Shown: positions 1-64,000, numbered from the stretch's first letter. The stretch: 64,000 nucleotides of DNA from an uncultured Actinomycetota bacterium (GCA_963724415.1 CAVRUS010000012.1:66271-130270), one strand, 5' to 3'. Notes: generated by a model from the letters alone, not told the origin. Numbers and translations are program-made.

Positions 1-1975
1 CGCAGCCGTCCTCGCCGGCGTGGCAGCCATCGTGGTGGCGAAGGCCGCCGAACTCGCGCACACCGCACAGATCTCCGGCTTGACGGGCTACGACCCTCCC
101 GACGTCTTCCTGACGGTCGTCACCGCGGGCATCCTCGTGACCGTCCTCTGCGGGATCGTCTTCGCGGCGATCGGGAGGTTCCGGCTGGGCGGGCTGATCC
201 GGTTCGTGCCGTATCCGGTCGTCGGAGGGTTCCTCGCCGGCACGGGATGGCTGCTGTTCAAGGGCGGGGTCAACGCCGCGGCGGGGATGCAGGTGAAGCT
301 CCGCAACCTCGGCCAGTTGTTCGAGTTCCAACTCAGCCACCTGCTCCCGGCACTCGCGTTCGGTGTGATCCTTGCTGATCGCGGTCCGCGTGATCAAGCG
401 GCCCCTCGTGATCCCGGCGGTGATCGGGATCGGGCTGGTGGTGTTCGCGATCGGGATGGTCGTGACCGGCTCCTCGATCGAGGAGGTCCGCGAGGGAGGG
501 TGGCTGCTGTTCGGAGGGTCCGAGACGACGCAGCTGTGGGAGTTCCGGACGTTCGAGGCGCTCGGCGGCGCCGACTGGGCGTCCGTGCTCGAATCGTGGG
601 CCGAGATCGTGGGCGCGGTGTTCGTGGCCACGCTCGCGATCCTGTTCAACATCTCCGGCACCGAGCTCGTCTTGGACCGGGACCTCGACACGAACAAGGA
701 GCTCCGCGACGCCGGCGTCCTGAACGTCGTGTCGGGAGCGCTCGGGGGGATCCCCGGCTATCACGCGCTCTCGCTGACCGCGCTCGCGGAGCGCATGCGC
801 GTGGACGCGCGGGCCGCCGGGCTGATCGCGGCGGCGGTCCCCCTGGCCGCGGTCGTGTTCGGCGCCTCGGTCGTGGGGCTGATCCCGCGGATGATCGTCG
901 GAGGCGTGCTGGTGTTCCTCGGCCTGGCCTTCCTGGTCGAGTGGGTCTGGGACAAGCGGAAGCTGCTGCCGCCGCTCGAGTACGCCGTCGTGGTGGTGAT
1001 CCTGGTCGGGATCATCGTGTGGGGGTTCCTGGAGGGTGTCGTGATCGGCCTGGTGCTCGCGGTCGTGTTGTTCGCCGTGAGCTACGGCCGGATCGAGCTG
1101 GTGAGAGAGGTCGCCTTCGGCGAGACCTATCGCTCGAACGTCGATCGGCCGGCGAGCGAACGTGCCGAGCTGCGCGGGCTTTCGGACCGGGTCCAGATCC
1201 TGCGGGTGAGCGGGTTCGTGTTCTTCGGGTCGACGAACCGCCTGCTGGAGCGGATCACGCCACCGGATGGAACAGGCGGCCCCGCCCCCGGTTCCTGGTG
1301 ATCGATCTGCGGCGCGTCACAGGCGTGGACTCCTCGGCGGTCGTCGCGTTCGTGAAGGTGATGGGTCTGGCGGAGGCCGCCGGATCGGAGATCGTCTTCA
1401 CCGGCGCCTCCGATCCCGTGCGTGCCCAGCTCGCCCGCGGAGGCGTGGACGAGACCGAGGGTCTCGTGGTCTTCGAGCCCGACCTGGACCGAGGGCTGCA
1501 GCGGTGCGAGGACGCGCTGCTTTCCGCCCCGAGCCTCGACGAGGCGCGTCGGGAGCACCCCGCCGCCGCCTCACCCGACGGGCTGCCCCCGGGCCTGGCC
1601 GCCCACCTCGAGCGCGTCTCGGTGCCCGCCGGCACGGTCCTGCTCCATCAGGACGACCCGCCGGGCGACGTCTACGTGCTCGAGTCCGGGCGCCTGGCCG
1701 TGGAGACCGTCACGCCCGAGGGCACGCGGCTCCGGCTGCGGACGCTCCGCCCCGGGGTCGTCGTGGGCGAGATCACGCTCTACACGGACGTCCCGCGCAC
1801 GGCCGACGTGGTGGCCGAGATCCCGAGCGTGGTCCTGCGCATCGACCGCGGATCGATCGAGCGGCTCGAGGCCGAGGAGCCGGAGCTCGCCGCGGCGCTG
1901 CACCGGTGGCTCGCGACGACGATGGCGGAGCGACTGACCGACCGGATGCGGGCGCTGGACTCCCTTCTGGATTGA
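1..1975 (+). CDS. SulP-family anion transporter fused to a C-terminal STAS domain and a cyclic-nucleotide-binding (cNMP) domain. The 5' end lies outside the window. The frame switches twice as assembled (about 385 and about 1285).
   Basis: SulP TM motifs (FVPYPVVGGFLAGTGWLL) in frame 2 continue as IAVRVIKRPLVIPAVIGIG... in frame 3 (ORF 372..1301). STAS motifs (ILRVSGFVFFGSTNRLLERI / FLVIDLRRVTGVDSSAV) and a cNMP-binding domain (VYVLESGRLAV...GEITL...RTADVVA) resume in frame 2 up to the stop at 1975. Confidence 0.7.
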   Translation, partial: AAVLAGVAAIVVAKAAELAHTAQISGLTGYDPPDVFLTVVTAGILVTVLCGIVFAAIGRFRLGGLIRFVPYPVVGGFLAGTGWLLFKGGVNAAAGMQVKLRNLGQLFEFQLSHLLPALAFGVILADRGPRDQAAPRDPGGDRDRAGGVRDRDGRDRLLDRGGPRGRVAAVRRVRDDAAVGVPDVRGARRRRLGVRARIVGRDRGRGVRGHARDPVQHLRHRARLGPGPRHEQGAPRRRRPERRVGSARGDPRLSRALADRARGAHARGRAGRRADRGGGPPGRGRVRRLGRGADPADDRRRRAGVPRPGLPGRVGLGQAEAAAAARVRRRGGDPGRDHRVGVPGGCRDRPGARGRVVRRELRPDRAGERGRLRRDLSLERRSAGERTCRAARAFGPGPDPAGERVRVLRVDEPPAGADHATGWNRRPRPRFLVIDLRRVTGVDSSAVVAFVKVMGLAEAAGSEIVFTGASDPVRAQLARGGVDETEGLVVFEPDLDRGLQRCEDALLSAPSLDEARREHPAAASPDGLPPGLAAHLERVSVPAGTVLLHQDDPPGDVYVLESGRLAVETVTPEGTRLRLRTLRPGVVVGEITLYTDVPRTADVVAEIPSVVLRIDRGSIERLEAEEPELAAALHRWLATTMAERLTDRMRALDSLLD

Positions 1976-2020
1976 GACCTGGCCTGGACTGAGGCCTGGA
2001 TCGAGGGCCCGTGTCCGAGC

Positions 2021-2686
2021 TCAGCACCCGAGGATGCCGGGCCACAGGTGCGCGACCTCGCGCTTGCACACCGGGATCCGGGTCCAGTCGTCCGTCGCGA
2101 GATCGGTCGCCCGCTCTCCTTCGTACGCGCAGGTGTCGTCGAGCGCCTCGAGGTGCAGCGACCCGCGTTCAAGCGCCCACGAGTACGTCCCGCGTTCCCG
2201 GGAGCAGTTCGGATCGTTGAACAAGGTCAGCCGGTCCCCATCCACGGTGTAGTGACCGGTCGAATGGAACGCCGCCATCTGGTGGTCCACGAAGTACGCG
2301 CCCTGGAAGAAGATCAGGGTCGTGACCCCTGGGTCGCGCGCGTACGGCAGGCACCGGCGGCACGGGAACGGGAGCGCGTTGCTCGCGCCGCCGAGGTCGT
2401 CGAGCGTGAGGATCAACATGTACGTGCCGTCGATCTCGGTCGCGACCGGCGCGGGGGTCGGCTCCGTGTACGGGTACGGCAGCACGGTGACCGGTAGGTC
2501 GGCGAGCGACGACGCTTCCAGGACCTCGTTGCTCGCGGGGGTCGGAGTCGGGGACGGTGACGCAGCGACCGGGGCGGGCGCGGGCGGCGGGTCGTCGAAC
2601 AGGAGAGCCGCCACGAGCAGCAGGGACACGGCCGCCACCACGGACGGCACGAGCCTGCGTCTGGTCGGGTTCGATCCTTCGGTCAC
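2021..2686 (-). CDS. Hypothetical secreted or membrane-anchored protein. It has an N-terminal TM/signal segment, a Pro-rich linker and a Cys-containing globular domain.
   Basis: ORF MTEGSNPTRRRLVPSVVAAVSLLLVAALL... with PAPAPVAASPSPTPTP linker. No recognisable family. Confidence 0.45.
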   Translation of the reverse strand: MTEGSNPTRRRLVPSVVAAVSLLLVAALLFDDPPPAPAPVAASPSPTPTPASNEVLEASSLADLPVTVLPYPYTEPTPAPVATEIDGTYMLILTLDDLGGASNALPFPCRRCLPYARDPGVTTLIFFQGAYFVDHQMAAFHSTGHYTVDGDRLTLFNDPNCSRERGTYSWALERGSLHLEALDDTCAYEGERATDLATDDWTRIPVCKREVAHLWPGILGC

Positions 2687-2730: not shown

Positions 2731-3456
2731 GTGGTGGACGAGCTGCGACCGATCGAGGCCGTCGTGTTCGACATGGACGGCGTCCTGATCGATTCGGAGC
2801 CGATCTGGCGGGCCGTGGAGCGCGACGTCTTCGCGGGCGTCGGGATCGAGCTCACGGACGAGGACCTGTTCCCGACGATGGGGGTGCGGATCGCCGACGT
2901 CGTGGACCGTTGGTACCGGCGCCATCCGTGGCCCGAGCCCAGCCGGGAGACGATCGCCGAGGCGATCGTCGAGGGGGTCGTGCGCGCGATCCGGGAGCGC
3001 GGGACCGTGCTCGAGGGAGCGACGGCCGCCGTGGACCACGTCCGCGGACTCGGCCTCCGGGTGGCCCTCGCCTCGTCCTCGCCGATGCCGTTGATCCAGG
3101 CAGTGCTCTCTCTCGACGGGCTCGCCGAGCGGTTCGACGCCGTGGTCTCCGGCGAGGACGAGGAGCTCGGCAAGCCGGATCCCGCGGTCTATCTGTCGGC
3201 CGCCCGTCGACTCGACGTGCGACCGGATCGATGCCTCGCCGTGGAGGACTCGATCAACGGCGTCCGCGCGGCGAAGGCTGCGGGGATGGTCTGCGTCGCG
3301 GTCCCGGCGGTCGGCGCGGACGACGGCATCGCTGCGGAAGCCGATCTCGTGCTCGGCTCGATCGCGGATCTCGGCGACCGGATGTGGGCCGAGGTCGGGG
3401 CGGTCCCGCAGCGGTCCGTCTCGCATACTGAGCGGATGGGCGGAGGTGGCCGATGA
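2731..3456 (+). CDS. HAD-superfamily hydrolase (beta-phosphoglucomutase / phosphatase-like).
   Basis: HAD motif I AVVFDMDGVLIDSE, motif III GKPDP, motif IV CLAVEDSINGVRAAKAAGM. Probable GTG start at 2731/2734; the R-rich N-terminal extension of the listed ORF looks spurious. Confidence 0.75.
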   Translation: MVDELRPIEAVVFDMDGVLIDSEPIWRAVERDVFAGVGIELTDEDLFPTMGVRIADVVDRWYRRHPWPEPSRETIAEAIVEGVVRAIRERGTVLEGATAAVDHVRGLGLRVALASSSPMPLIQAVLSLDGLAERFDAVVSGEDEELGKPDPAVYLSAARRLDVRPDRCLAVEDSINGVRAAKAAGMVCVAVPAVGADDGIAAEADLVLGSIADLGDRMWAEVGAVPQRSVSHTERMGGGGR

Positions 3457-4284
3457 CCGACATCCCTTCGGTGACGCTGGCCAACGGCGTCGCGATGCCG
3501 GCGCTCGGGCTGGGTACCTCGCCGATGGGCGACCGGAAGGCCGAGGAGATCGTGACCGCCGGGTTGCGTGACGGCTATCGCCTGATCGACACCGCCGAGA
3601 ACTATCGGAACGAGGGCGGCGTGGGACGGGGCATCCGGGCGAGCGGCGTGGACCGCGACGAGGTGTTCGTCACCACGAAGTTCAACGAGCGCTGGCACGG
3701 CGAGGCCGAGGCACGACAGGCCTTCGCGAACGGCGCCGAGCGCCTCGGCCTCGCGCACATCGATCTGCTCCTGATCCATTGGCCGAACCCGCAGAAGGAT
3801 CGCTACGTGGACGCGTGGAAGGGGCTCCTCTCGTTGCTCGAGGACGGTTCGGTCCGCGCGATCGGCGTCTCGAACTTCAAGCCGGCGCACCTCGACCGTC
3901 TCCTCGAGGCGACGGGGGTCGCGCCCCACGTGAACCAGATCCAGCTCGATCCGACGCACAGCCGACCCGAGGAGCGTGCGTACCACGCCGCGCACGGGAT
4001 CGTGACCGAGAGCTGGTCACCGATCGGCGCGGGCAGCGATCTCCTCGCGGATCCGACGATCGTCGACATCGCCCGGCGCCGCTCGAGGACGCCCGCGCAG
4101 ATCGTGTTGCGATGGCACGTGCAGCTCGGGTCTCGTCCCGATCCCCAGGACGTCGAAACCGGAGCGCCTGGCCGAGAACCGGGACGTGTTCGACTTCGAG
4201 CTCACCGACGCCGAGATGGAGGAGCTCGCGGCCCTCGATCGTCGCGACGAAGGGGTCATGGACTCCGACCGCTTCGGCCACTGA
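3453..4284 (+). CDS. Aldo/keto reductase (2,5-diketo-D-gluconate reductase-like) with a +1 frame switch near 4135.
   Basis: LGLGTSPMG...GYRLIDTAENYRNE...IDLLLIHWP...IGVSNF...IVLRWHVQLGS in frame 3. The conserved C-terminus VPIPRTSKPERLAENRDVFDFELTDAEMEELAALDRRDEGVMDSDRFGH* is read in frame 2, ending at 4284. ATG at 3453 overlaps the upstream stop (ATGA). Confidence 0.8.
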
Positions 4285-13408: not shown

Positions 13409-14098
13409 ATGCTGACGACGCCGATGCGCGCGCTGGTGGTGGAGGACGGGTCGAAGATGGCTGCGCTCCTCCGGCGGGGGCTGCAGGAGGAGGGGTTCGC
13501 GGTCGACGTCGCCGGGTCCGGCGAAGACGGAACGTGGTTCGGCACCGAGAACGACTACGACGTGATCCTGCTCGACGTGATGCTCCCGGACATCGACGGG
13601 TTCGAGGTCTGCCGCCGCTTGCGCGCGGCGGACCGATGGGCGCCCATCCTGATGCTGACCGCGCGCGACGGCGTCCGGGACCGGGTCACCGGCCTGGACG
13701 CCGGCGCCGACGACTACCTCACGAAGCCGTTCTCGTTCGACGAGCTCTTCGCTCGCGTGCGGGCCCTCCTCCGGCGGGGGCCATCGGAACGGCCCCCGGT
13801 GCTCGTGGTCGGCGATCTCGTCCTCGATCCCGCGACCCGCCGGATCACGCGCCAGGATCAGGAGATCGACCTCACGCCGAAGGAGTTCGGTCTCCTCGAA
13901 CTGTTCCTCCGTCACCCGGGTGAGGTCCTGTCGCGAACGCGGATCCTCGAGCACGTTTGGGACTTCGCCTACGACGGCGACTCGAACGTGGTCGACGTCT
14001 ACGTCCGCTACCTCCGGGAGAAGATCGACCGCCCCTTCGGCCGCCGCTCGATCGAGACGGTTCGAGGCGTGGGGTACCGCCTGCGGGAGGACCCGTGA
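13409..14098 (+). CDS. OmpR-family response regulator (receiver plus winged-helix).
   Basis: ALVVEDG...DVILLDVMLPDIDG...LMLTAR...YLTKPF. C-terminal trans_reg_C (LTPKEFGLLELFLRHPGEVLSR...VRGVGYRL). Confidence 0.9.
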   Translation: MLTTPMRALVVEDGSKMAALLRRGLQEEGFAVDVAGSGEDGTWFGTENDYDVILLDVMLPDIDGFEVCRRLRAADRWAPILMLTARDGVRDRVTGLDAGADDYLTKPFSFDELFARVRALLRRGPSERPPVLVVGDLVLDPATRRITRQDQEIDLTPKEFGLLELFLRHPGEVLSRTRILEHVWDFAYDGDSNVVDVYVRYLREKIDRPFGRRSIETVRGVGYRLREDP

Positions 14099-14143
14099 GA
14101 GGACTGGCGATCCGGACGCAGGCTGACGCTCGTCTTCGCGGGC

Positions 14144-15427
14144 ATGACGGTCGTCGTCCTGGGGATCGGCGTGATCGCCCTCGTGCTCGGGTTCCGGAGT
14201 GAGCTGTGGCGCTCCGTCGATGAAGGATTGGTCGAGCGAGCATCGACGCTTGCGGTGGATCCACTCGACGCCGTGACGGCGATGACCGGCTCAGACGATG
14301 TGTTCGCTCAGGTGCGTCTCCGGACCGAGATCCTTGCATCGAGCCCAGGCCTCGGAGACGAACCGCTTCCGCTTCCCCCTTCCGACGGCTCGTGCGAGCC
14401 GGGGTTCCTCGAGGCCGATGTCACCATCGGAGGGGAATCGGTACCGGCCCGCCTGTACGCGACGTGCGTTCTGGACGGCTCGACGCTCGTCGTCGGGCAA
14501 GACGTGGAAGATCAACGCCTCGCGATCGCCCGCTTGACCGCGATCGTCGCGATCGGCGGCCCGATCCTTCTCGCCGCGATGGCGGGTCTCGGGTGGGTGC
14601 TCGCCGGGGCCGCGCTCCGGCCCGTCGAGCGTCTCCGCGCCGAAGCTGCCGCCCTCTCGCTCGCCGAACCGGCCCGCCGACTGCCGGTGCCCGAGACGGG
14701 CGACGAGCTGCAGCGGCTCGCCGAGACGCTGAACGGGATGCTCGATCGCGTCCACGAGTCACTCGAACGCGAACGGCGCCTCGTCGACGAGGCGAGCCAC
14801 GAGCTTCGGACGCCACTCGGCGTCGTGCAGGCCGAGCTCGATCTGGCGTTGCGCGAGCCGCGGAGCCGCGAGGAGCTCGAGGCCGCCCTGCGGAGCATCA
14901 CGCAGGAGACGGACCGACTCCGCCGACTGACCGAGGATCTCCTCGTGCTGGCTCGATCCGATCACGGGCGCATCCCCGTCCATCGCACCGACGTGGACGT
15001 ATCGGAGATCCTCCAGCGCGTCGCTCACGAGTTCGCCGACAACGCCGCGCGGGTCGACGTGGAGGTCCGGGTCTCCGGCCCACCGCTCCGCGCGCGTCTC
15101 GATGGCGACCGGGTCCGGCAGGCGGTGGAGAACCTCGTGGCGAACGCGATCCGGCATGCGGACCGAGGCGGGGTCGTGGAGGTGACTGCGGTTCGCGACG
15201 CCGATGCGCTCCGGATCGTCGTGCGAGATCCCGGTCCCGGGTTCGCGGAGGACGTGATCGACCGCGCGTTCGAGCCGTTCGCGAGGGCGGACGGGGATCG
15301 GGCGAACGACGGCGCGGGACTCGGCCTCGCGATCGTGAGAGCGGTCGCGGAGGCCCACGGCGGGTCGGCCACGGCCCGGAACCTGGACGGCGGCGGCGCA
15401 GAGGTCTCCATCGAGGTGCCGGTCTGA
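14144..15427 (+). CDS. Sensor histidine kinase (2 TM, HAMP, HisKA, HATPase_c).
   Basis: H-box ASHELRTPLGVVQAELDLAL, N-box LVANAIRHA, G-boxes DPGPGF / GAGLGLAIV. The frame-2 stop of the RR sits directly upstream. Confidence 0.85.
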   Translation: MTVVVLGIGVIALVLGFRSELWRSVDEGLVERASTLAVDPLDAVTAMTGSDDVFAQVRLRTEILASSPGLGDEPLPLPPSDGSCEPGFLEADVTIGGESVPARLYATCVLDGSTLVVGQDVEDQRLAIARLTAIVAIGGPILLAAMAGLGWVLAGAALRPVERLRAEAAALSLAEPARRLPVPETGDELQRLAETLNGMLDRVHESLERERRLVDEASHELRTPLGVVQAELDLALREPRSREELEAALRSITQETDRLRRLTEDLLVLARSDHGRIPVHRTDVDVSEILQRVAHEFADNAARVDVEVRVSGPPLRARLDGDRVRQAVENLVANAIRHADRGGVVEVTAVRDADALRIVVRDPGPGFAEDVIDRAFEPFARADGDRANDGAGLGLAIVRAVAEAHGGSATARNLDGGGAEVSIEVPV

Positions 15428-19140: not shown

Positions 19141-20030
19141 ATGTCTCCCGCCCTGCTCATCGTGCTCGGCGTGATCGCGCTCGTCGCGGTCGCGTACTTC
19201 GCCGGCCTCCGGCCGGCACCCGCCCGCGGCCGCAAGCCGACGCCCGGCATCCTCCGCCGCCGATCCAAGTGGCGGAAGGTCCTCCCCGTCATCCCGCTCC
19301 TCGGGGCCGTCGGGTGCCTCGTCTACGCGTTCAGCGGGTTCCGGTTCAACGTCGAGGAGACCGCGCCGGTGATCGTGCTCGTGATGGACGTGTCGAACTC
19401 GATGGATGCCACGGATGTCGAGCCGAACCGTCTCGTGGCGGCGGAAGATGCCGCGAACGCGTTCCTCGACGAGCTCCCCCCGGAGTTCCGGGTCGGTCTG
19501 GCGACCTTCGCGGGGGAGGCCACGCTCGATGGTCGACCCCACGCCAGGCCCGCGGAGAGGTCGTCGACGCGCTCGGCGGGACTCACCACCTCACGGGGAA
19601 CGGTGATCGGCGACGGGCTCACGGTCGCGCTCGACGTGATCGAGGAGATCCGGCTCGATGCGCCGGACACCCCCGCGGCCGCCCTGCTCCTGTCCGACGG
19701 CCGGGACACCGGGAGCCGAGGTACCCCCCGGCGAGGCCGCGGCGCGAGCCGGCTTCACTCGACGTTCCGGTGTTCACGGTCGTCGTCGGTCAGGTAGCCG
19801 AGGACGATGGTTCCGGTGCCGACCTCGACGCCATGGAAGCGATCGCCACCACGAGCGGCGGCGACACGTTCACCGCCGAGACGAGTGACGAGCTCACGAC
19901 GATCTACGCGGACCTCGGATCCGAGCTGTCGGTGGAGCTGGACGTCGAGCCGTCCACCACGCCTCTGGTGATCGCGGCGATCGCCCTGACCGTGCTCTCC
20001 GGGCTCATGCTCCTCTACGCTCCCCGCTGA
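19141..20030 (+). CDS. VWA-domain membrane protein (BatA-like), frame-shifted at least once and probably three times as assembled.
   Basis: N-terminal TM. MIDAS VLVMDVSNSMDA. GTVIGDGL and LLLSDGRDTG in frame 1. ARGEVVDALGG and the conserved C-terminus LDVPVFTVVVGQ...TGGDTFTAETSDELTTIYADLGSEL plus terminal TM are in frame 3 (ORF 19113..20030). Confidence 0.65.
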
Positions 20031-20116
20031 TCGCGCTCACCCGCCCGGTTCTCCTCGACCGGGATGGCCTCCTCGCCAGGCGTAGGAGACGACCAGCTGG
20101 GGTATCTCCCCATCGG

Positions 20117-21145
20117 ATGCGTGAATCGACACTCGACCCGACGTCCGCCACAGCCGGTGATCGGCTCCCGACTGCGCGCGGTCCCCTCAGCGAGGCGATA
20201 CTCGGCGTGCTCACGCAACGTGGTACGCCCGGATATCCGATCCCCGTGCCGGCGGATCCGTTGGGCGACGACGATCTCCATCTCGCCCTCGCCCTCGCCT
20301 ACGAGCTGTCGTACCGAGGCCTCCCGGGGGTCCGCGACGATCTGGAGTGGGATCCGGCGGTCCTGGGGATCCGGCGGGTTCTCGAAGACGCGTTCGAGGC
20401 CGGCCTGCGCCGTTTGATCCCTCGGGAGTACGTGGATCCTGCCGACGTTCCCGACCGGCTCCAGGAGATCGCCTCGCCGCCCGGTGAGGATTCGCTCTCC
20501 GCGTTCATCGAGCGTGCCGCCACGCTGGAGCAGGCCCGGGAGTTCCTGATCCACCGCTCCGCCTATCAGCTGAAGGAGGCCGATCCGCACTCCTGGGTGA
20601 TCCCACGTCTGGTGGGGGCGGCGAAGACGGCGGTCATGGAGATCCAGTACGACGAGTACGGCAGCGGCGACCCTGCCTGGATGCACGCGGAGCTGTTCCG
20701 GAACACGATGGTCGCCGCGGGTCTCGACGGGTCGTACGGGGCCTACCTCGGACAGCTGCCGGGGTCGACCCTTGCGACGATGAATGTGATCTCGCTCTTC
20801 GGGCTCCACCGCAGGCTGCGTGGCGCGCTCGTGGGTCATCTCGCCGCATTCGAGATGAGCTCGAGCCTGCCGAACCGCGCCTACGGTCGGGGGTTCCGCA
20901 GGCTCGGCTTCGACGATACGGCGACCCGATTCTTCGACGAGCACGTCGAGGCGGACTCGGTCCACGAGGTGCTCGCCTGCGACCTGGCCACCCTGTTGGC
21001 GACCCGTGAGCCCGAACTCGCGGGAGATGTCGTGTTCGGAGCGACCGCGATGGCGTTCCTCGAGGACCGTTTCGCCGACCGCCTGCTCGGCGGCTGGCAG
21101 TCCGGTGGCTCGGCGCTCCTGCTGGCGGCCGCAGCCGCGAGCTGA
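20117..21145 (+). CDS. Heme-oxygenase-like diiron enzyme ('iron-containing redox enzyme family', Haem_oxygenas_2 / HDO-type), tentative.
   Basis: All-helical, about 340 aa. Carboxylate/His-rich motif TAVMEIQYDEYGSGDPAWMHAELF plus downstream HLAAFE and EHVEADSVHE, as in CADD / SznF-type HDOs. Confidence 0.5.
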   Translation: MRESTLDPTSATAGDRLPTARGPLSEAILGVLTQRGTPGYPIPVPADPLGDDDLHLALALAYELSYRGLPGVRDDLEWDPAVLGIRRVLEDAFEAGLRRLIPREYVDPADVPDRLQEIASPPGEDSLSAFIERAATLEQAREFLIHRSAYQLKEADPHSWVIPRLVGAAKTAVMEIQYDEYGSGDPAWMHAELFRNTMVAAGLDGSYGAYLGQLPGSTLATMNVISLFGLHRRLRGALVGHLAAFEMSSSLPNRAYGRGFRRLGFDDTATRFFDEHVEADSVHEVLACDLATLLATREPELAGDVVFGATAMAFLEDRFADRLLGGWQSGGSALLLAAAAAS

Positions 21146-21150
21146 GCGCC

Positions 21151-22554: not shown

Positions 22555-22638
22555 CTCCCGGGCCGGTCCGTCGGAGATACCGTTCCCCGATCCGACCGCC
22601 TGTAGTCCTTCTCGCGCGGATGGCTCAGCGAACGTGGC

Positions 22639-38497: not shown

Positions 38498-38655
38498 GCA
38501 GGAAGCCTACGGCGGGCCGACACCGCGTGGGTCGCACCGCGCCCGGGACGTCGCCGCTGGACCCGGGTCACCGGTTCCGCTGCGCCGATCGGGTCCGCTC
38601 CGTAGAGTCGGCGCGACGATCCGGGTGACGGGGCGACCCGCCGGAGAAGGGGCGC

Positions 38656-43005: not shown

Positions 43006-43388
43006 GCTCTGGTCCGTCCACGCGAACGAGGATGCCTGCGAGCTCGCGATGCGCGCGCCGGGCGCGGGCAGGGTGGCGACGGACGAGGTGTTCGTTCGAG
43101 GCTCCATCGCGGAGGACCTCCGCGCGGCCGTGCTGACGGTCGACCCCGACGCGCTGATCCGGGAGTCGACCGAGGGGTGGGACGGGGATCGTGCTCGAGG
43201 GCGGCGACGCGCACGCGGTCTTCGCCCGGTTGTCGGATCTCCGGCTCCCGGACGGGGGAGGCTACGTGCAGGGGGATGTCGCGCGCGTCGCCGCCCGGGT
43301 CTTCGTGGAGGACGGCGCGCTCCATCTCTTCGTCCGCGCCCAATGGAGCGCCTACCTCCATCGGCAGGTCGAGGGAGCCGGGTCATGA
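42998..43388 (+). CDS. soxG: Sarcosine oxidase gamma subunit, with one frame switch near 43185.
   Basis: GGAGGGAG RBS. GTG overlaps the soxA end. ...STEGW then GIVLEGGDAHAVFARLSDLRLPDGG...ALHLFVRAQWSAYLHRQV* in a second frame. Stop overlaps soxB ATG (ATGA). Confidence 0.65.
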
Positions 43389-44593
43389 CGGGCCTGCTCC
43401 GCCGCCGGACCTACCTCCCGTCGCGGGAGCTGCGGCGCGCCTACGACGTCGTGATCGTCGGCGGTGGCGTCAACGGGCTGTCGCTCGCGTACCACCTCGC
43501 CGCCGAGCACGGGATCCGGGACGTCGCGGTCATCGAGCGCTCCTACATCGGGAGCGGCGGCAGCGGTCGCAACACGCAGGTCCTCCGCGCGAACTACAAC
43601 ACCCCGGAGACGGTGCCGCTCTACGCCGCCAGCCTCGCGCGCTACCGCCGGTTGTCGCAGGAGCTCGGGTTCAACGTCTTGTTCACGAACGAGGGCGAGC
43701 TCGACCTCTGCCACACGGAGGATTCCCTGCAGGTCGAGCGGGAGAAGTCCGCCCTGAACAGGGCGCTCGGCGTGCAGACGGACATCCTCGGACCCGACGA
43801 GATCCTCGAGGTGTGTCCTCTGGTGGATCTGAGCGGCGGCGGCGAGCTCCCGGTGCTGGGCGCGTCGTACCACCCGCCCGGATCCTTCGCCCGCCACGAC
43901 GCCGTCGTCTGGGGGTTCGCGCAGGCCGCCGCGCGGCGCGGCGTGGACATCCACCAGGGCGTGACGGTCACCGGCGTCGAGGTGGACGGCGACACGTGCG
44001 TCGGCGTGGAGACGTCGGCCGGCCCGGTCTCGGCCGGACACGTCGTGAGCGCGGTCGCCGGATGGTCGACCCAGGTGGCGGCGATGGCGGGTGTGCGCCT
44101 GCCGATCGTGACGCACCTGCTGCAGGCCTTCGTGACCGAGCCCTATCGACCGGTGTTGCGCGGGCTGGTCTCGTCGATGGACCTCACGATCTACGTGTCG
44201 CAGACCGCCCGCGGGGAGCTCCTGGCGGGTGCCGAGATCGTCCCGTACGCCACGTACTCGACGCGCTCCACGTTCGAGTTCCTCGCCGAGGCCGCCCGGC
44301 GATCGGTGATGATCCTCCCGTTCATGGCGGAGGCGCGGGCGATGCGGCAATGGGGCGGGTCGTGCGACATGACGCCCGACTCGTCCCCGATCCTCGGCCC
44401 CACGCCCGTGGACGGCTTCGGTGTGATGGCCGGGATGGGGACGTGGGGGTTCAAGGGCGCGCCGATCTTCGGCGCGACGATGGCCGACTACGTCGCGACC
44501 GGCCGCGTGCCGGAGCTGATCGCGCCCTTCGCCCTGAGCCGGTTCCGCGAGGATCGCATGGTTCCCGATGCCGCCTCGGCGGGTACCCACTGA
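43386..44593 (+). CDS. soxB: Sarcosine oxidase beta subunit (FAD, DAO family).
   Basis: YDVVIVGGGVNGLSLAYHLAAEHGIRDVAVIE...GSGRNT...GWGFKGAPIFGATMADYVATG. Confidence 0.85.
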
Positions 44594-44598
44594 GCGCG

Positions 44599-45066
44599 AT
44601 GCGACGACTCGACCTCATCCGGCACGCGAAGCGGGACCCGAACCACGACCGCCTCTCGGCCGCGGGGCGGGCCCAGGCGGAGGACGTCGGACGGGCCGCG
44701 TCGGACGGCTACGACGCTGTCTTCGTCTCGCCGGCGGAGCGGGCCGCCGAAACGGCCGCGTGGATCGTCCGCGGGGCGGGGAGTCAGCTGCCCTCGCACG
44801 GGGTGATCGACGGTCTGGCCGGGAGGGACGCGACGGGCGGCAGCCCGGAGGGGATGGCCGCGGGCGTCCGCACCCTGCTCGACGCCGTCCCCGATGGCGG
44901 CGATCGGCCTCGCGGTCTCGCACACACCGTTCGTCGAGCGCGCGATGATCGGCCTGACCGGGCGCGAGCCGGCGCCGTTCGCGGAGTGCGAAGGCATCCG
45001 CGTGGTCCTGGCGGATGACGGTGGGGTGGAGGTCGAGGAGATCAGGCGCTCGGCCGCGGATCGGTG
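44599..45066 (+). CDS. Histidine-phosphatase (phosphoglycerate-mutase-like) family protein, with a frame switch near 44895.
   Basis: LDLIRHAKRD...AAGRAQAEDVGRA...DAVFVSPAERAAETAAWI in one frame. The conserved C-terminus AAIGLAVSHTPFVERAMIGLTGREPAPFAECEGIRVVL is in the adjacent frame. Confidence 0.65.
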
Positions 45067-45539
45067 ACGTCCGCCACCTGCGCGTCGAGGACGCGGAGGA
45101 GGTCCGCCGGGTCGACGTGGAGGTTGACGCCATGGGCGCCGGCGCCGATCGCGACGACGTCGCGATCGGCGATGGTCGCGTCGGCCACGACCGGCCAGGC
45201 GGTGGACGACGCGAACGGCGTGATCGCGCCCCGCTCGTAGCCGGTCGCGTCGCGTGCCTCCTCCTGATCCGGGAGCGAGAGCCGGTGCACCCCGAGGTGT
45301 GCGCGGAGCCGCGCCCAGTCGATCTGCCGGCCGCCGGGGACGAGGACGAAGACGTAGTCGCCCGCGCCGCGCCGCACGACGATCGAACGGATCAGCTGTG
45401 CCACCTCGATGCCCTGGAGCTGGGCGCTCTCCTCGGCACTGTGCGCCCGTTGCGTGCGGACGACGCGGAACGGGATGCCCGACGCGCCGACCTCGCGGAT
45501 CGCGGGGGTGTCCTTCGTCGCGTCGTGGTGAGCGGTCAT
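45042..45539 (-). CDS. ybaK: YbaK/EbsC-family Cys-tRNA(Pro) / aminoacyl-tRNA deacylase.
   Basis: [55 protein letters not shown]...GAITPF. Confidence 0.75.
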
Positions 45540-46606
45540 GGATCGTGGTCGGCGTACGCCGGCCGGATCACGTCGTCCAGGAACGCCACCCGCTCGTCGA
45601 AGGGCAGGAACGCCGACTTCATCGCGTTGATCGTGAGCCTGCCGATCCGATCCCATCCGATCCCGAACGCGTCGACCAAGTGCGCGAGCTCCTCGGAGAG
45701 CGTCGTCGCGGACATCAGGCGGTTGTCCGTGTTCACGGTCACGCGGAACTTCAGGTCCGTCAGGAGCCCGATCGGATGCGCTTCGATCGACGCCGCCGCG
45801 CCCGAATGGACGTTGGAGGTCGGGCACAGCTCGAGGGGCACGCGCCGGTCGCGAACGAGATGCGCGAGGGGCCCCAGCCGAGCATGGCCGTCGGGCCGCA
45901 GGTCGATGTCGTCGACGATCCGCACCCCGTGACCGAGCCGCTCGGCGCCGCAGAGCTGCAGCGCCTCCCAGATGGACGGCAGTCCGAACGCCTCTCCGGC
46001 GTGGATCGTGAGATGGAAGTTCTCCCGGCGGACGTGGTCGAACGCGTCGAGATGACGCGTGGGCGGATAGCCGGCCTCCTCACCCGCGATGTCGAAGCCC
46101 ACCACACCTCGGTCCCGCCAGCGGACGGCGAGCTCGGCGATCTCGAGCGAGCGCGCGGCCGTCCGCATCGCGGTGAGGAGGGTGCCGATGCGGATCCCGG
46201 TGCCACGGGAGCCTTCGCGGAAGCCCTCTTGGACCGCCTCGACGACGTCGTCGAGAGCGAGCCCCTGCTCGAGGTGCTGCTCGGGGGCGAAGCGGACCTC
46301 GGCGTAGACGATCCCGTCGGCGGCGAGATCCTCGGCGCATTCGCGCGCGACCCGCACCAGCGACCCGCGCGTCTGCATCACGCCGACCGTGTGCGCGAAC
46401 GTCTCGAGGTAGAGCACGAGATCCTTCCGATCGGCTCCACGGGTCATCCACGCGCCGAGCTCCCCGACGTCACGCGTGGGGAGCCCCTCGTAGCCGGTCT
46501 CGTCGGCCAGCTCCACGATCGTGGCGGGCCGGAGTCCGCCGTCCAGATGGTCGTGCAGCAAGACCTTCGGCGCCTCCCGGATGCGCTCGAGCGTCGGCGT
46601 CGCCAT
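45536..46606 (-). CDS. add: Adenosine deaminase.
   Basis: [15 protein letters not shown]...HAGE...[10 protein letters not shown] and other ADA motifs. Stop overlaps ybaK ATG (ATGA). Confidence 0.9.
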
Positions 46607-46636
46607 ACGCAGATGCTAGAGGCGCGCCGCCGTGGT

Positions 46637-47728
46637 CAGGAGGACTTGAGGTAGCTGTACGTGATCTTCGCCGTGACGATCCGGCACGACGTGACCCCGC
46701 TCACGGAATCGGTCACCGTGAGGAAGGACTCGTGACTCGTGTGGCCTGGGATTTCGCCTGCTGGGGCCGCATTCGTTCTGGGAGTTGTCGATCACGAACG
46801 ACGCGCTCTCGATCCGCTGGGCGCTGCCCAGCCCCCACCGGTAGAAGACGGACATCCTGCTCCCATGGCAATCGACCTGGAGGAACCCGCCCAGTGCGTG
46901 GACGAAGCAGTCGCCGCCGCGGACGGTCGCGCTCTCGGTCGTGTGGTGGTACGCCGTGCCCGGCTTGGTCTTGATCGCGGTGGTCCGGTAGGTCCTGACG
47001 ATCGAGACCTTCTTCGGCTTGGAGACGGCGGGGGGAGCCGTCCCATCGTCCGCCCAGATCTTGACGAAGTACTTCCCCGCGGGTCGGTTGCCGGCGAAGC
47101 TGCCCTCACCCTGGCCGTCCCAATCCCAATGGTTCGATCCTGCGCCCAGGCTTCCGAGCTGGTCCTCCCGGATCAACGATCCACAGCACTTCCCGCTGCC
47201 GTTGGCCTTGAAGACGCGGGCCTCCGCGTCGGCGTCCGCGGCGAGGGTGAATCGGATCCGTGTTTCGTCCTTGTACCCGTCGTCGATCCACGGCAGGAAC
47301 GGGTTCGGCGTCGCTCCCGTGATGACGGCGAGGGGGGGAAGGAGATGGAAGTTCTCGGGACTTCCCTGGAGGTTCCCGCCCCGATAGACGGCCACCTGGT
47401 ACGTCCTCGCCGATGTGACGGAGAGCGCCGGCCACGAGAAGGACACCTCGCGCGGCGACGTCTGCGTGTCGGGGTCGATGAACACTTGCTTCTCGCGGAT
47501 CGCGGAGCCGCCGAGCGGCCGCAGCCGGAGCTCGAACGTCGCGTCGCTCGAATCGGCGTCGAACGTGAACGTCACGGTCGCCGGCCCGGAGAACGGTGAG
47601 AAGAATTCGCTCGTCCCCCCCGGGAACGTGATCACGGGGTCCTCGTAGACCGCCGTGGCGGGGAGTGCGGTCAGGAGACCGAACGCCAGGGCGATCGCGG
47701 CGGCTACCGGGAGGGATCGTGTCCGCAT
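46637..47728 (-). CDS. Secreted beta-rich (Ig/FN3-like) protein of unknown function, with a frame switch near 46790.
   Basis: Signal peptide MRTRSLPVAAAIALAFGLLTALPATA. The plausible C-terminus ...ESFLTVTDSVSGVTSCRIVTAKITYSYLKSS* appears in the adjacent frame. ATG follows the dinB stop directly. Confidence 0.5.
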
Positions 47729-48829: not shown

Positions 48830-49729
48830 TCAGGCCGCGTTCGCGCTGTCGAGCGCGGCCTGGAGCCGTTGCACGGGACCCTTCAGGCCGTGTTCGTCCG
48901 CGAACTCCTTCAGGGCGTCGTCGTCCCGTCCGCCCGACCACACGGTCAGGGGCGCGACGGCGTTCACCGGGACGAGGCGACGCATCGCGTCGAGGTAGTC
49001 GGCCGACTCGAGGAGGCGCGCCTTGAGTGCCGGCTTGCCCTTCAGCGGTCCGGGGCGGGTCTGGGGCTGCGCGGCATCGGCGAGCAGGTCGTCGAGGGAG
49101 TCGTAGGTCTGGATCAACGCTCGCGCGGTCTTCTCGCCGACGCCACGCACACCGGGGAGGTCGTCGGACGGATCCCCACGGAGGATCGCGAATTCCGCGT
49201 ACCGCGATGCCGGCACGCCGTACTTCGCGAGGACGCCCGCTTCGTCGTACTCGCCCAGCTCGGAGACGCCTCGCAGCGTGAACAGCAGCTTCACGACGGG
49301 GTCCCGGACGAGCTGGATCAGGTCGCGGTCACCCGAGACGATCTCGATCCGATCGGTCTCGGCCGCTTCGACGCAGAACGCGCCGATCGCGTCCTCCGCC
49401 TCCCACCCCTCCGTCTCCGCCTGCAGGAGGCCGGTGAGGTCCAGGACGCTGCGCAACAGCGCGAACTGCTGCGTGATCGCCTCGGGCTCCGGGGGGCGGT
49501 TGGACTTGTAGCCCGGATAGATGTCCGTGCGCTCCACCGGCCGCCAGTCGTGGTCGTACACGTGGACGACCTCGTCGGGTCGGCGTGTGGCGACGAGCCG
49601 GGTGACCATGTCGAGGTAGCCGTGGACGGCGTTCACCGGCCGTCCGTCGGGCGCCGTCACCGAGTCCGGCATCGCGAAGAACGCCCGGTAGGTCAGGCTC
49701 GAGACGTCCAGCAGGATCCTGTGGGTCAC
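48830..49729 (-). CDS. Stand-alone 5'-3' exonuclease / flap endonuclease (Pol I N-terminal-domain homolog).
   Basis: ILLDVSSLTYRAFFAMP...VYDHDWRP...GYKSNRPP...GDRDLIQLV...DDLPGVRGVGEKTA. Confidence 0.85.
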   Translation of the reverse strand: MTHRILLDVSSLTYRAFFAMPDSVTAPDGRPVNAVHGYLDMVTRLVATRRPDEVVHVYDHDWRPVERTDIYPGYKSNRPPEPEAITQQFALLRSVLDLTGLLQAETEGWEAEDAIGAFCVEAAETDRIEIVSGDRDLIQLVRDPVVKLLFTLRGVSELGEYDEAGVLAKYGVPASRYAEFAILRGDPSDDLPGVRGVGEKTARALIQTYDSLDDLLADAAQPQTRPGPLKGKPALKARLLESADYLDAMRRLVPVNAVAPLTVWSGGRDDDALKEFADEHGLKGPVQRLQAALDSANAA

Positions 49730-50535
49730 TCAGCGCTCCTCGCGGTCGTGTGCACGATATCGAGGAGCTCCCGATGAAGCGTCGGGTCCGCGCTCGCGAG
49801 GAGCGAGTCGGACCGAAGGGTCCAGGGTGCGCCCTCGATGTCCGAGATGCTCCCTCCCGCCTCGGTGACGAGCAGGGTTCCCGCCCCCGTGTGCAGCGCC
49901 GGGGCCGAGAACAGCGCGTAGGCACCAAGGCGGCCAGACGCGACGTACGACGAGGACAGCGTGCTGCTGAGGTTGCGGATGTCCCAGCGATCCGCGCGGA
50001 TCATCTCGTGGGTGAAGCGCGCGGCGTGTTCCCGCCGCGAGCCAGCTGCCTGGCCCGGTTCAACCGAGATGGTCTGGTTCTGACCATCGGTGCCCAGCCG
50101 ACGCTGACCCTCGGGGCCCGTTGCCCAGGCCCCACCGCTGTGCTCCGCGAACTGGACCTCGTCGATCGATGGATCGCCCACGACCGCAACGGTGATCCGA
50201 TCGCCCTCCGCCAACGCGAGGTTGACGCTGTAGAGCGGGATCCCGGACGCGAAGTTGCGCGTGCCGCAGATGGGGTCGAGGAGCCAGTAGGTCGATCCGT
50301 CGGCGGGGGGTTCCCCTCCGCGCTCTTCGCCGACCACCGGATGGGACGTCTCACCCTCGACGATCCGTCGGATCTCATCCTCGACGGCGATGTCGGTCGC
50401 GGTCACCAGATCGCGGCCCCCCTTGGAGGTGATCTCCTCCGCGCCAACCCGGCTGCGGGCGAGCTCCAGACCACGACGGACCGCACGGAGGGCCACTTGC
50501 GTGGCGGGTCGGACGTCCTCGATGGCCCGATCCAT
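49726..50535 (-). CDS. Inositol monophosphatase family protein (SuhB/ImpA-like).
   Basis: ATDIAVEDEI...HPVVGEE...WLLDPICGTRNFASGIPLYSVNLAL. Stop overlaps the downstream exonuclease ATG (ATGA). Confidence 0.8.
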   Translation of the reverse strand: MDRAIEDVRPATQVALRAVRRGLELARSRVGAEEITSKGGRDLVTATDIAVEDEIRRIVEGETSHPVVGEERGGEPPADGSTYWLLDPICGTRNFASGIPLYSVNLALAEGDRITVAVVGDPSIDEVQFAEHSGGAWATGPEGQRRLGTDGQNQTISVEPGQAAGSRREHAARFTHEMIRADRWDIRNLSSTLSSSYVASGRLGAYALFSAPALHTGAGTLLVTEAGGSISDIEGAPWTLRSDSLLASADPTLHRELLDIVHTTARSAE

Positions 50536-50552
50536 CCCCCGACCTCAGCCTG

Positions 50553-51875: not shown

Positions 51876-52124
51876 GACCTGCAGCCTAGCTGCGACCGGC
51901 TGCTAGCGTCGGCGCCGAGATGGAGACGACCCACGGGCGGACGGCGTGGCCCGCCGTCGCCGCGGCCATCGCCGGCTTCGTCGTGGAAGCCACCGTGGCC
52001 GGCGGTCCCCGGTTCCCCGCTGCAGCCGGTCCTGGCTCCGGGCGCGGATCCCGGCGGCCCGTTCGCCTGGCTCGCGGAGCTGGTCGGCCTCGATCGCCTC
52101 GGCGACGCCCTCCCGGTCGCCTCC

Positions 52125-53480
52125 GTGCTCGGCGTCGCCGCGGGGATGGCCGGGTTCCTGATCCTGCTCCGGGCGGCGTGGCGCGGCGACCTCTCGATCC
52201 GTGTCGCCCTCGGGCTGGCGGTCGCCTTCCACGTGGGGATCGTGCTGCTGCCGCTGTTGGTCTCGCGGGACGTGTACTCGTACATCGCGCACGGACAGAT
52301 CGTCTCCCTGCACCACGCGAACCCGTACGTGCAGACGCCGGCCGACTTCCCCGGCGTCCTCTCGCGGACGCTCGTCGGTCCGCAGTGGGTCGACACGCCC
52401 TCCGTCTACGGACCGCTCTTCACGCACATCGCCGGCGCCGTCACCCGGACCTCGTCGCGGCTCGACGTGCTCGTCGACACCTTCCGGCTGATCGCGATCG
52501 GCGCGAGCCTCGCGACGACGTTCGTGATCGCCGTGGTGTGTCGCCGCGTCCGTCCGGGACGGGCCGCTTTCGCAGTCGCCGCGTTCGGGCTCAACCCGGT
52601 CATCCTCTTCCAGTCCGCGGGCAGCGGCCACAACGACCTCTTGGTGGCTCTCGCGATCGCGGTCGCCGCCTGGTGCGTGCTCACCGAGCGGACCCACTGG
52701 GCGATCGCGGTCGTCACGTGTGGCGCGCTCGTGAAGGCGACGGCGTTCCTCCCGCTGGTGCTCCTCGTCGTCTGGGTCGCCTGGCGCCGCCCGCCTGGCG
52801 AGCGCCTGCGGGCCGCGGTGACCCATGCGGCCTTGGGGGCGGCCATCGTGCTGGTGGTCGCGTTCCCGTTCCTCCAGTCGCACGATCCGACGCTCGGGAT
52901 GCTCGAGCTCTCGTCGCACGAGGGATGGCTCGCGCCCTCCCGGTTCTTCCGCCGCGTGCTGGACGCGATCAGCGGGGACACGTTGGGTGTGGTGGCGCGC
53001 GTCGCGTTCGCGATCGCGCTCGTTGCGACGGTGGTCTGGCTCGTCCGGGCGATCGCGCGTGCGGCTGCGTCGGGACGGCCGTCCCTCGAGCTCCTCGGCG
53101 GGTGGGGATGGGCCCTGCTCGCCCTGACGCTGCTCGGCCCGGTGCTCCTCCCGTGGTACCTCGCGTGGTCGCTCCCGCTGATCTGGATCCTCCCGAGGGT
53201 GCCCCGCGTCTCTTTGATCGCGCTGTCGACCGTGCTCGCGCTCTCGCAGTGGACCGCGGAGCCGATCCGCTTCCCCGACGCGTACGACCTCAACATCCTG
53301 ATCGGGCACTACGTGCTCACGCCGATCGTGATCGGCCTGCTGGTGTGGTTGCTCCTCGACCTACGCCGGCGCTCGTCGATCCCGCTGCCTTTGCACGACG
53401 AGGAAGAGCGCGAGCCCGCCGAAGCCCGCGAGGGCCGAGGCGGCGAGCGCGACCGGCACCTCCACGAGCCGGAGCCCTAG
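52125..53480 (+). CDS. GT-C polyprenol-phosphate-mannose-dependent alpha-1,6-mannosyltransferase-like protein (MptA/MptB, GT87/DUF2029-like). N-terminus possibly extends to about 51920 through a frame switch.
   Basis: LLPLLVSRDVYSYIAHGQIVSLHHANPYVQTP...GPQWVDTPSVYGPLF signature and at least 9 TM helices. A TM-like start METTHGRTAWPAVAAAIAGFVVEA lies in another frame upstream. Confidence 0.5.
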   Translation: MLGVAAGMAGFLILLRAAWRGDLSIRVALGLAVAFHVGIVLLPLLVSRDVYSYIAHGQIVSLHHANPYVQTPADFPGVLSRTLVGPQWVDTPSVYGPLFTHIAGAVTRTSSRLDVLVDTFRLIAIGASLATTFVIAVVCRRVRPGRAAFAVAAFGLNPVILFQSAGSGHNDLLVALAIAVAAWCVLTERTHWAIAVVTCGALVKATAFLPLVLLVVWVAWRRPPGERLRAAVTHAALGAAIVLVVAFPFLQSHDPTLGMLELSSHEGWLAPSRFFRRVLDAISGDTLGVVARVAFAIALVATVVWLVRAIARAAASGRPSLELLGGWGWALLALTLLGPVLLPWYLAWSLPLIWILPRVPRVSLIALSTVLALSQWTAEPIRFPDAYDLNILIGHYVLTPIVIGLLVWLLLDLRRRSSIPLPLHDEEEREPAEAREGRGGERDRHLHEPEP

Positions 53481-58558: not shown

Positions 58559-58564
58559 CCGGCT

Positions 58565-61723: not shown

Positions 61724-61728
61724 CCTGC

Positions 61729-62447: not shown

Positions 62448-62487
62448 CGAGCGATCCGGGCTGGGCGCTGCGCGGTGACGCGCGGCG

Positions 62488-63664
62488 GTCAGCCACGCAG
62501 GCCGTGGAGCGCGCGGCAGGCGTCGCCGAGGACGAGCCTGCCCAGCGCGATAGCGCTCGTCGACGGAGACGTAGTCACGGTCGACGAACGCCCCCAGGAC
62601 ACGCTGGAGCGCGGATCGTGCGAGGAGCGCCGAGGCCCAGAACGCCTCCGGCTCCCCGGCCTCGTCCGATCCGTAGAGGAGCTTCGCCGCCGGGACCGTC
62701 CCGACGAGCATCTCGAGGGCCCACTCCACCTGCCCCCATCCCCACGGGATCAGCTCGGAGAGCTCCAGGTAGACGTTCGGCAGGACCGAGGCCACGTACG
62801 CGGCCTCGCGGACCCACGGGTAGCCGGAGTGCACCAGGACGATCGGTTGATCCTGCGACGTCGACGAGGAAGGGGAACATCGACACCGGGTCCGCATGCG
62901 CCAGGTTGATGTCCGGGTCGCCCGCCGCCGCAATGGAAGTGGAACGGCCGATCGTTCGCCTTCGCGACGGCGAGCGTCCGATGGATCAGGAAGTCGCGGA
63001 CCGGCTTGGCGTGCTCTCTCGTCTCGGCCCAATCGTCACTCCGCCATCGTTCGAACGCGTCCTGGGCGGCCGACGCGTCGGGATCGCCGATGTCGAGCCC
63101 GGTCCGGTACGCGACGATCGACTTGTACGCCACGCAGTTCGGGTCTGCGGCTGCCCGTTCCGCTTCGTCTTCCACTCCGGAGACGAGCTCGTCGAACGTG
63201 CCGTCCCGGTGCTGAAGGACCCAGGGCTCGAGGCGCGTCACGCGGTGCACCGTCACGCCGATCGTCGCGGCGAACTCGTTCGCGGGGATCGGCGGCTGCG
63301 GGTACCCCTCGTCGGAGAGGACGGCGACCACGCCCGCGGCCTCCATCAATCCCTTCGTGTACGCGACAGCGTCAGTCTGGATCGCTGCCTGCCGGGCGGC
63401 GGTCACGGCCTCGCGCGTGGGCTCGCAACCGAGGTGCGCCGCCAACCACCGCCGGAGGGCGAGGGCGTACACCGTGGAGTCCGTGAACGCGTCCGCCACC
63501 GGCCACAGCTCGGCGTGCATCTGGGAGGAGGACAGGAACGATTCCCCGAGGAACATCGCCCGCGTGTCGAAGCCCTCCGACCCCTTGGCTACCAGGTCCT
63601 CGAGCCGGTACGGGTGCGTATGCGCATCGACGATCTCGATGCCGGACAGATCGACGTCGGCCAT
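62488..63664 (-). CDS. Amidohydrolase_2 (PF04909-type metal-dependent hydrolase / decarboxylase), frame-shifted at least twice (near 62555 and in a GGC run near 62900).
   Basis: MADVDLSGIEIVDAHTHP...RPFHFHCGGG in one frame; QPIVLVHSGYPWVREAAYVASVLPNVYLELSELIP in a second; C-terminus AIALGRLVLGDACRALHGLRG* in a third. ATG overlaps the stop of the upstream GS-like gene (ATGA). Confidence 0.65.
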
Positions 63665-64000
63665 CAATACCTCCACCGATGCGCGCGCACGACATCCTCC
63701 GGCTCCTGGCCCTCGAAGACGTCGCGTTCGGCGCGCCTGGTCGCGAGGAACGAGTCGAACAGCACGTCGCCCATCGCTTCGCGGAGCATCGAAGACTTCT
63801 CGAGCTCGCCGATCGCGGCGCCGAGTGAGTCGGGCAGCTGGCGGATCCCCATCGAGCGGCGACGGCGAGCGGGGATCGAGGCGGGATCCTCGCCGACGGG
63901 CTCGGGGAGCGACAGCTCGCGGTCGAGCCCGTCGATCCCGGCGGCGACGATCGCGCCGAGGGCAAGATATGGGTTCGCGGCCGGGTCCATGGACTTGACC
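63664..64000 (-). CDS. Glutamine-synthetase-family protein, C-terminal part only (5' end beyond window). Possibly a gamma-glutamyl-amine ligase (GlnA-like paralog).
   Basis: NPYLALGAIVAAGIDGLDRELSLPEPVGEDPASIP...GIRQLPDSLGAAIGELEKSSMLREAMGDVLFDSFLATRRAERDVFEGQ matches the GS catalytic-domain C-terminus. Confidence 0.7.
   Translation of the reverse strand, partial: VKSMDPAANPYLALGAIVAAGIDGLDRELSLPEPVGEDPASIPARRRRSMGIRQLPDSLGAAIGELEKSSMLREAMGDVLFDSFLATRRAERDVFEGQEPEDVVRAHRWRY

Follow-up and report, generated by a model that had tools for sequence, protein, structure and literature searches.

We analysed a stretch of 64,000 nucleotides (nt) from an uncultured Actinomycetota bacterium (GCA_963724415.1, CAVRUS010000012.1:66271-130270; the whole stretch is hereafter called the window), in which otherwise conserved genes repeatedly change reading frame. 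Among the ~68 genes of the window, which form the base for our gene counts, we identified 22 frame changes in 13 genes (~19% interrupted), a lower bound, with 21 of the changes resolved against related sequences. All 22 are +1 changes, that is, the window carries one base too many at each site (p = 5e-7). Judging from sequence comparisons, these frame switches are very probably consensus errors of the assembled sequence and not mutations in the organism. The window has a GC content of 70% and is probably part of a long-read metagenome-assembled contig from an uncultured soil actinobacterium; the names of related contigs and their relatedness to the window suggest that the reads were probably Nanopore reads and the pipeline probably Flye followed by one round of Medaka.

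A sliding frame plot of GC content at third codon positions (GC3) revealed many switches of coding phase that involve neither a change of strand nor a gene boundary, and a profile search of the window reading frames found single Pfam domains divided between frames. In a SulP-family transporter, Sulfate_transp is matched from hidden Markov model (HMM) position 81 to 142 in one frame and from 178 to 378 in another, and the STAS and cNMP_binding domains are back in the first frame. The GCV_T domain of the sarcosine oxidase alpha subunit is likewise covered by HMM positions 1-180 and 170-254 in separate frames, and the Aldo_ket_red match of an aldo/keto reductase ends at HMM position 250 of 291. 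Each site was checked by comparing the proteins of relatives with the window using tblastn, and the nearest relatives were compared by nucleotide alignment. The changes form clusters: five fall within 230 bp of a gene for a protein with a von Willebrand factor A (VWA) domain (Monte Carlo p = 2e-5), three in 380 bp of an amidohydrolase gene, two or three in the SulP gene, and two in a cyclase gene.

The initial annotation of this DNA had proposed frame switches in at least ten genes, namely those for the SulP transporter (about 385 and 1285), the aldo/keto reductase (about 4135), the VWA protein (about 19540-19735), a membrane protein with four transmembrane segments (4-TM; about 25600), the cyclase (two switches), soxA (about 42468), soxG (about 43185), a histidine phosphatase (about 44895), a secreted protein encoded after dinB (about 46790), and the amidohydrolase (at least two), with a NicO-family transporter and the N-terminus of MptB as possible cases. 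Comparison with relatives confirmed all twelve, including the two possible ones (real changes at 59310 and 52001, respectively), and added a histidine kinase, so that the extent had been slightly understated; the positions usually lie within ~20 nt of those found here. The density is as unusual as had been claimed: against the 22 changes in the window, the same detection pipeline with the same query proteins yielded none in ~35 kb when three related contigs (L087, L088, and L089) were compared with one another. The mixture of +1 and -1 shifts proposed in the initial annotation was not seen.

A scan of a genome collection with the intact soxB product retrieved uncultured Actinomycetota metagenome-assembled genomes (MAGs) only. 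Several of these relatives are long-read MAGs of Microflora Danica (MFD), and MFD MAGs are among the closest to the window in GTDB. The MEGAHIT-named MAG contig L001 shows 95.5% nucleotide identity across window positions 39760-46243. Further relatives were gathered by three protein searches followed by contig look-ups, and they carry two kinds of contig names. Those with JGI or scaffold names (L083, L086, L087, L088, and L089) are 78-89% identical to the window. The relatives from ENA with names of the form ‘contig_N’ (ERZ25039456 to ERZ25039591) include L081, L084, and L085, at 91-97% identity, and the more distant L082, with an S8 protease whose protein sequence shows 83% identity. An exact look-up of the window STAS protein yielded nine ‘contig_N’ sisters, L090-L098, with 94-98% identity and none identical to the window (L091 is the same contig as L081, ERZ25039494 contig_2341), as well as L099, a short k141-named contig.

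The extra bases of the window are missing from L001, from the five JGI/scaffold-named contigs, and from most sister contigs (21 of the 22 sites resolved). The exceptions are the 4-TM base, which occurs in three sister assemblies, and the base at 19574, which occurs in L092. Over the ~6.5 kb shared with L001, the alignment contains four gaps, three of which correspond to the extra bases in soxA, soxG, and the histidine phosphatase gene, the fourth being an in-frame 3-bp indel. In the 1.5 kb aligned with L089 there are only three gaps, each of 1 bp, and these are the extra bases of the amidohydrolase gene. In L083, L086, L087, and L088, all the affected genes that were compared are intact. The ‘contig_N’ relatives L081, L084, and L085 carry 4, 10, and 12 frame changes in 16-21 kb, mostly +1, and a three-way alignment of L084, L085, and the window contains 45 private 1-bp insertions in 16.6 kb for L084, 7 for L085, and 6 for the window. 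Furthermore, gene calls in L090-L098 show different genes fragmented in each contig, and among the ‘contig_N’ sisters the S8 protease measures 713, 714, 636, 448+263, 654, or 109+513+97 amino acids (aa), depending on the contig. Independent bursts of insertion in each strain are not credible, because otherwise-named contigs of this clade carry unbroken versions of these genes; an artefact of assembly accounts for the entire pattern.

Deletion of the extra bases repaired 12 of the 13 genes (soxA and the histidine phosphatase and aldo/keto reductase genes for the analysis of selection only), and none of the 12 repaired genes contains an internal stop codon. When ten repaired proteins were searched against Pfam, eight gave a match, and the domain matches are now unbroken. 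The repaired SulP transporter has one continuous Sulfate_transp match (81-378, 94 bits); the VWA protein covers HMM positions 2-172 of 174 and is 96% identical to that of a sister; the amidohydrolase matches Amidohydro_2 at HMM positions 127-261; and the 1051-aa cyclase contains Guanylate_cyc, AAA_16, and TPR_12. Selection past the shifts is as strong as before them: the pooled ratio of nonsynonymous to synonymous polymorphism (pN/pS) is 0.21 upstream of the first shift and 0.24 beyond it, and the values for six intact control genes are 0.05-0.20. In the affected genes we saw no nonsense codons, deletions, or insertion sequences, only single-base insertions.

The inserted bases fall at strain-polymorphic sites rather than in homopolymers. 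We aligned the window with up to nine sister contigs and pooled 43 private 1-bp insertions from ten assemblies, using polymorphism between assemblies of different samples as a proxy for co-occurring haplotypes. By this measure, the inserted base coincides with an allele seen in other assemblies at the adjacent column in 15 of the 43 cases (35% compared with 3.6% expected, p = 1.4e-11), and the adjacent column is polymorphic in 23 (53% compared with 16% expected, p = 3e-8). Insertions of the same base as a neighbour, pooled over the ten assemblies, are not enriched (35% compared with 48% expected). Sister data cover eight of the window sites, and six of these show a pattern in which both alleles are written: at 19529 the window has AT and the sisters A, T, or C, and the window has CA at 19546 and AC at 36100. 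The matches to adjacent alleles, together with the polymorphic neighbours, point to a consensus of collapsed co-occurring strains.

According to this scenario, reads of several co-occurring strains, at ~94-98% identity, would have been collapsed into one consensus, as the alignments show in part and as we infer for the remainder. Neighbouring haplotype differences would bring the read alignments into conflict, and the consensus would then write both alleles in succession, thereby adding one base. The window consensus carries one extra base per ~3 kb. Gene callers would then split or truncate the affected genes, and deletion of the extra base would restore each protein.

Two sites, 19574 and the site in the 4-TM gene, look like joins of two haplotypes. 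At the latter, the haplotypes read …ATCACGACGAG… and …ATCACCGCGAG…, and the reading frame of the gene is continuous in L081, L082, L083, L090, L094, L095, and L097. The extra base is identical in the window and in L092, L093, and L096, which come from other samples, and it adjoins a two-allele site; L098 lacks this base but has a different one nearby. In L093, a base missing 12 nt away restores the 179-aa frame, with a non-conservative SPSS replacing FTLV.

Several observations weigh against consensus error as the explanation. The 4-TM base, being common to four assemblies, could be a real segregating allele and not a recurrent artefact; its position, however, coincides exactly with a two-haplotype site, the kind of place at which an artefact would be expected to recur. 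The long-read-named relative L082 has no frame change over ~15.8 kb. Given this clean contig, the error rate differs between assemblies, and coverage or strain mix may be the cause, an attribution that we offer as conjecture. Moreover, the platform labels (Nanopore/Flye for the ERZ contigs and short-read for the JGI contigs) were deduced solely from contig naming, and pairwise pN/pS has little power against very recent real mutations.

We considered three other explanations of the frame changes. Real gene decay, in which the frameshifts are pseudogenising mutations, would fit the ~19% of window genes that are interrupted, as well as the 4-TM insertion, which is found in four assemblies from different samples as if inherited by descent. 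Pseudogene-rich genomes, such as those of Mycobacterium leprae and of recent host-restricted pathogens, contain nonsense mutations, deletions, insertions, and insertion sequences and show relaxed selection. The window resembles them in its many interrupted genes but differs in having only +1 insertions, no stops, and no relaxation: the lesions are single-base insertions at 22 of 22 sites and not a mixed spectrum, and pN/pS does not rise appreciably downstream of the shifts. The VWA gene would have taken five hits in 230 bp, yet its repaired protein is nearly that of a sister. Strains that are 96-97% identical would each need their own burst of mutation, one of them with an insertion per 370 bp of coding sequence, whereas the MEGAHIT-, JGI-, and scaffold-named contigs of the clade are free of breaks in these genes. 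Finally, mutation does not predict that inserted bases match neighbouring alternative alleles. Thus, we regard gene decay as very unlikely.

In favouring consensus indel errors over pseudogenisation, the initial annotation is supported by the clean repair, the absence of the bases elsewhere, the unrelaxed selection, and the different breaks in the sisters. Its reason for doing so, that most shifts lie in G/C homopolymers or GGC runs, did not survive the analysis, and its description of the assembly as unpolished is unproven. The mechanism implied there, classical homopolymer-length error of the Nanopore, 454, or Ion Torrent type, would account for the few sites that lengthen a run: 372 (T to TT), 19716 (C to CC), 19751 (G to GG), 62923 (CC to CCC), and possibly 1289 (in a run of four or five C). 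However, an identical base adjoins only ~5 of the 21 resolved window insertions, none of the window insertions lies in a run beyond four or five bases, and half of the inserted bases that could be identified (9 of 18) are A or T, in sequence of 70% GC. The pooled same-base rate is also at or below chance, and every window change is an insertion, whereas Nanopore homopolymer errors are usually deletion-prone. Homopolymer-length error is accordingly an improbable cause, on a par with gene decay. Biological recoding, whether programmed +1 frameshifting or transcriptional slippage that restores the proteins, would explain why the frame resumes exactly and why the downstream sequence is conserved. 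Programmed frameshifts such as those of prfB and dnaX are conserved across relatives and have a defined motif; the window sites share with them the continuation of reading in an adjacent frame but lack both the conservation and the motif. On comparing the contexts of the 21 sites we found no shared motif, the sites are conserved in no relative, in the relatives one frame suffices for each protein, as many as five shifts fall in one gene, and the sister assemblies are shifted elsewhere, so that we consider recoding to have a negligible probability. We also think it quite unlikely that a minority of the insertions are real, with the 4-TM base as the lead candidate for a segregating frameshift allele, or that the lineage is an insertion-biased mutator. 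A less radical, methodological possibility would be that strain polymorphism exceeds homopolymers as the main driver of residual errors in these long-read soil MAGs.

Consensus errors of related kinds have been described. The MFD long-read MAGs were assembled from Nanopore reads only, with Flye --meta and one round of Medaka, and their residual errors have been tied to low coverage and to long homopolymers in low-GC genomes (PMC12313526). An R10.4 evaluation provides a further case of indel and frameshift errors in Nanopore-only MAGs (PMC9262707). As in Nanopore-only MAGs, single-base indels split conserved genes in the window and its relatives, at a rate that differs by assembly, and the window is most closely related to MFD MAGs and to ENA contigs that share the ‘contig_N’ naming. 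The window departs from the MFD account of errors in its high GC content, in having insertions only, and in the position of these insertions at sites of strain polymorphism. In Trypanosoma brucei Lister 427, nearby allelic variants led to misaligned reads, INDEL errors in the collapsed consensus, and truncated open reading frames (PMC8445201). Similarly, the window insertions lie beside polymorphic columns, and in many cases the added base is the alternative allele; however, the T. brucei case involves diploid alleles and PacBio reads, whereas here a bacterial strain mix would be responsible, through a read-level mechanism that we infer.

The affected genes are distributed over the whole window. 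The SulP/STAS/cNMP transporter gene lies at 1-1975 (+ strand), its 5' end cut by the window, and contains changes at 372, 1257, and ~1289. The extra T at 372, which is not in L084 or L085, moves the frame from +2 to +3, and the L086 SulP protein accordingly aligns with residues 80-204 in frame +2 and 204-507 in frame +3. The extra A at 1257 moves the frame from +3 to +1 (‘LLERI’ in frame 3, ‘HRMEQAAPPP’ in frame 1), and 32 nt past it a second change, at 1286-1290, moves it from +1 to +2 through either one additional C in a run of C or the loss of 2 nt. The anchor-to-anchor length in this region is 72 nt, in frame, in L086, compared with 77 in the window, 77 in L084, and 76 in L085; the latter three have three different breaks inside one ~75-nt stretch. 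In relatives (L086, 2636-7046), there are two tandem SulP-STAS-cNMP_binding paralogues of 728 and 734 aa, and the window begins within the second.

In the aldo/keto reductase gene (3453-4284, + strand), an extra T at 4131 moves the frame from +3 to +1, and the C-terminal motif LVPIPRTSKPERLAENRDVFDFELTD resumes in the next frame. The histidine kinase gene (14095-15427, + strand) has an extra A in codon 8, at 14120, which is not in L081, L084, or L085; the relatives begin with VRGLAIRTRLTLVFAG, and the window reads VRGLAIRTQ in frame 1 and then RLTLVFAG in frame 2. Alignment of the VWA gene (19141-20030, + strand) to ten related contigs placed its five extra bases at 19529 (A), 19546 (A), 19574 (C), 19716 (C), and 19751 (G). 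With one exception, these bases are missing from all ten relatives; the exception is the base at 19574, which is also in L092, at a place where two haplotypes differ. The gene for the 4-TM membrane protein (25388-25925, - strand, 175-179 aa) has its extra base at 25582-25585, which moves the frame from -3 to -1. The gene for an adenylate/guanylate cyclase with AAA_16 and TPR domains (about 35343-38500, - strand) has two extra bases, one at 36100 (frame -1 to -2) and one at 35850, in the part encoding the C-terminal TPR region (frame -2 to -3), where CG in the window corresponds to C in L091 and L092 and to G in L003 and L015.

The extra T of soxA, which encodes the sarcosine oxidase alpha subunit (40500-43005, + strand), is at 42451, moves the frame from +3 to +1, and is not in L001; nine relatives put the break at 42449-42454. 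The neighbouring small soxG-like gene (about 43007-43388, + strand) has an extra C at 43183 (frame +2 to +3), and the histidine phosphatase gene (about 44599-45064, + strand) an extra G at 44902 (frame +1 to +2). The genes at 38656-44590 encode, in order, an amine oxidase-like flavoprotein, soxD, soxA, the small soxG-like protein, and soxB last, an order that is kept in related MAGs and differs from the usual order of sarcosine oxidase genes, soxBDAG. Downstream of dinB, the gene for the secreted protein (46636-47728, - strand) contains, near its 3' end, an extra base that can be placed only within 46746-46763 (frame -1 to -2); the peptides ...NECGP and GHTSHES... are in the same frame in L006-L009 and in separate frames in the window. 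The gene for a glycosyltransferase of the GT87/MptA_B family (51920-53474, + strand) has an extra G at 52001, at about codon 28 (frame +2 to +3), and the NicO-family transporter gene (58568-about 59890, - strand), which L087, L088, and L089 carry as a single gene of 442-448 aa, has an extra T at 59310 (frame -3 to -1). The three extra bases of the Amidohydro_2 gene (62489-63664, - strand), at 62923 (C), 62857 (G), and 62546 (C), take the frame through -1, -2, -3, and back to -1.

Ten further candidate frame changes were rejected. The candidate at 51026 is an antisense match over a divergent promoter, that at 32221 lies upstream of the start of an intact GAF-SpoIIE gene, and that at 40227 is the boundary between soxD and soxA. 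At 55155 the relatives have two genes (~603-616 and 177-186 aa), and the candidates at 7800, 9750, 19116, 21160, 27208, and 45504 are normal gene boundaries. Two seeming 1-base deletions of the window in the three-way alignment, at 823 and 8625, are really insertions in the sister contigs; the extra T at the equivalent of 823 is present in both L084 and L085 and, after the 4-TM base, is a second example of a recurrent insertion. At the stop codon of an Exo_endo_phos gene (19094), the window, L093, L094, and L097 have one G more in a G-run than the remaining sisters; as the run lies at the gene end, the frame is unaffected. The methylation motif GATC is approximately fivefold over-represented in the window (866 occurrences compared with 173 expected from base composition, one per 74 bp), and the insertion sites lie at a median of 11 nt from a GATC compared with 23 nt for random positions. 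We do not rely on this association, a weak post-hoc effect (p ~0.03), and the VWA cluster is far from any GATC.

Two segments differ in gene content among the relatives. The 2.6-kb segment at 20030-22629 encodes a Haem_oxygenas_2 protein, a 325-aa glycosyltransferase-like protein, a zf-CDGSH protein, and a DUF7218 protein. It is present, at least in part, in L090, L091, L095, and L097 and absent from L092, L093, L094, and L096, and appears to be a strain-variable island. At 49726-50550, where the alignments to L005, L009, L017, and L087 break off, the window has a 269-aa open reading frame on the minus strand, and the relatives have a VanZ-like gene or nothing at this locus.

To conclude, this finding contains no new biology, and the artefact matters solely for annotation quality and assembly polishing. 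About one fifth of the window genes would be annotated as split, truncated, or pseudogenised, including those for sarcosine oxidase subunits, the SulP transporter, the histidine kinase, and a cell-envelope glycosyltransferase. From the window record and its sisters, false fragments would pass into metabolic reconstructions, pseudogene counts, coding-density statistics, and protein databases. Because the insertions lie at strain-variable sites, homopolymer-aware filters would miss most of these errors, and frameshift-aware gene calling, short-read polishing, or strain-resolved polishing would be needed as a remedy. If it is true that strain polymorphism drives the residual errors, polishing practice for such genome catalogues would change.

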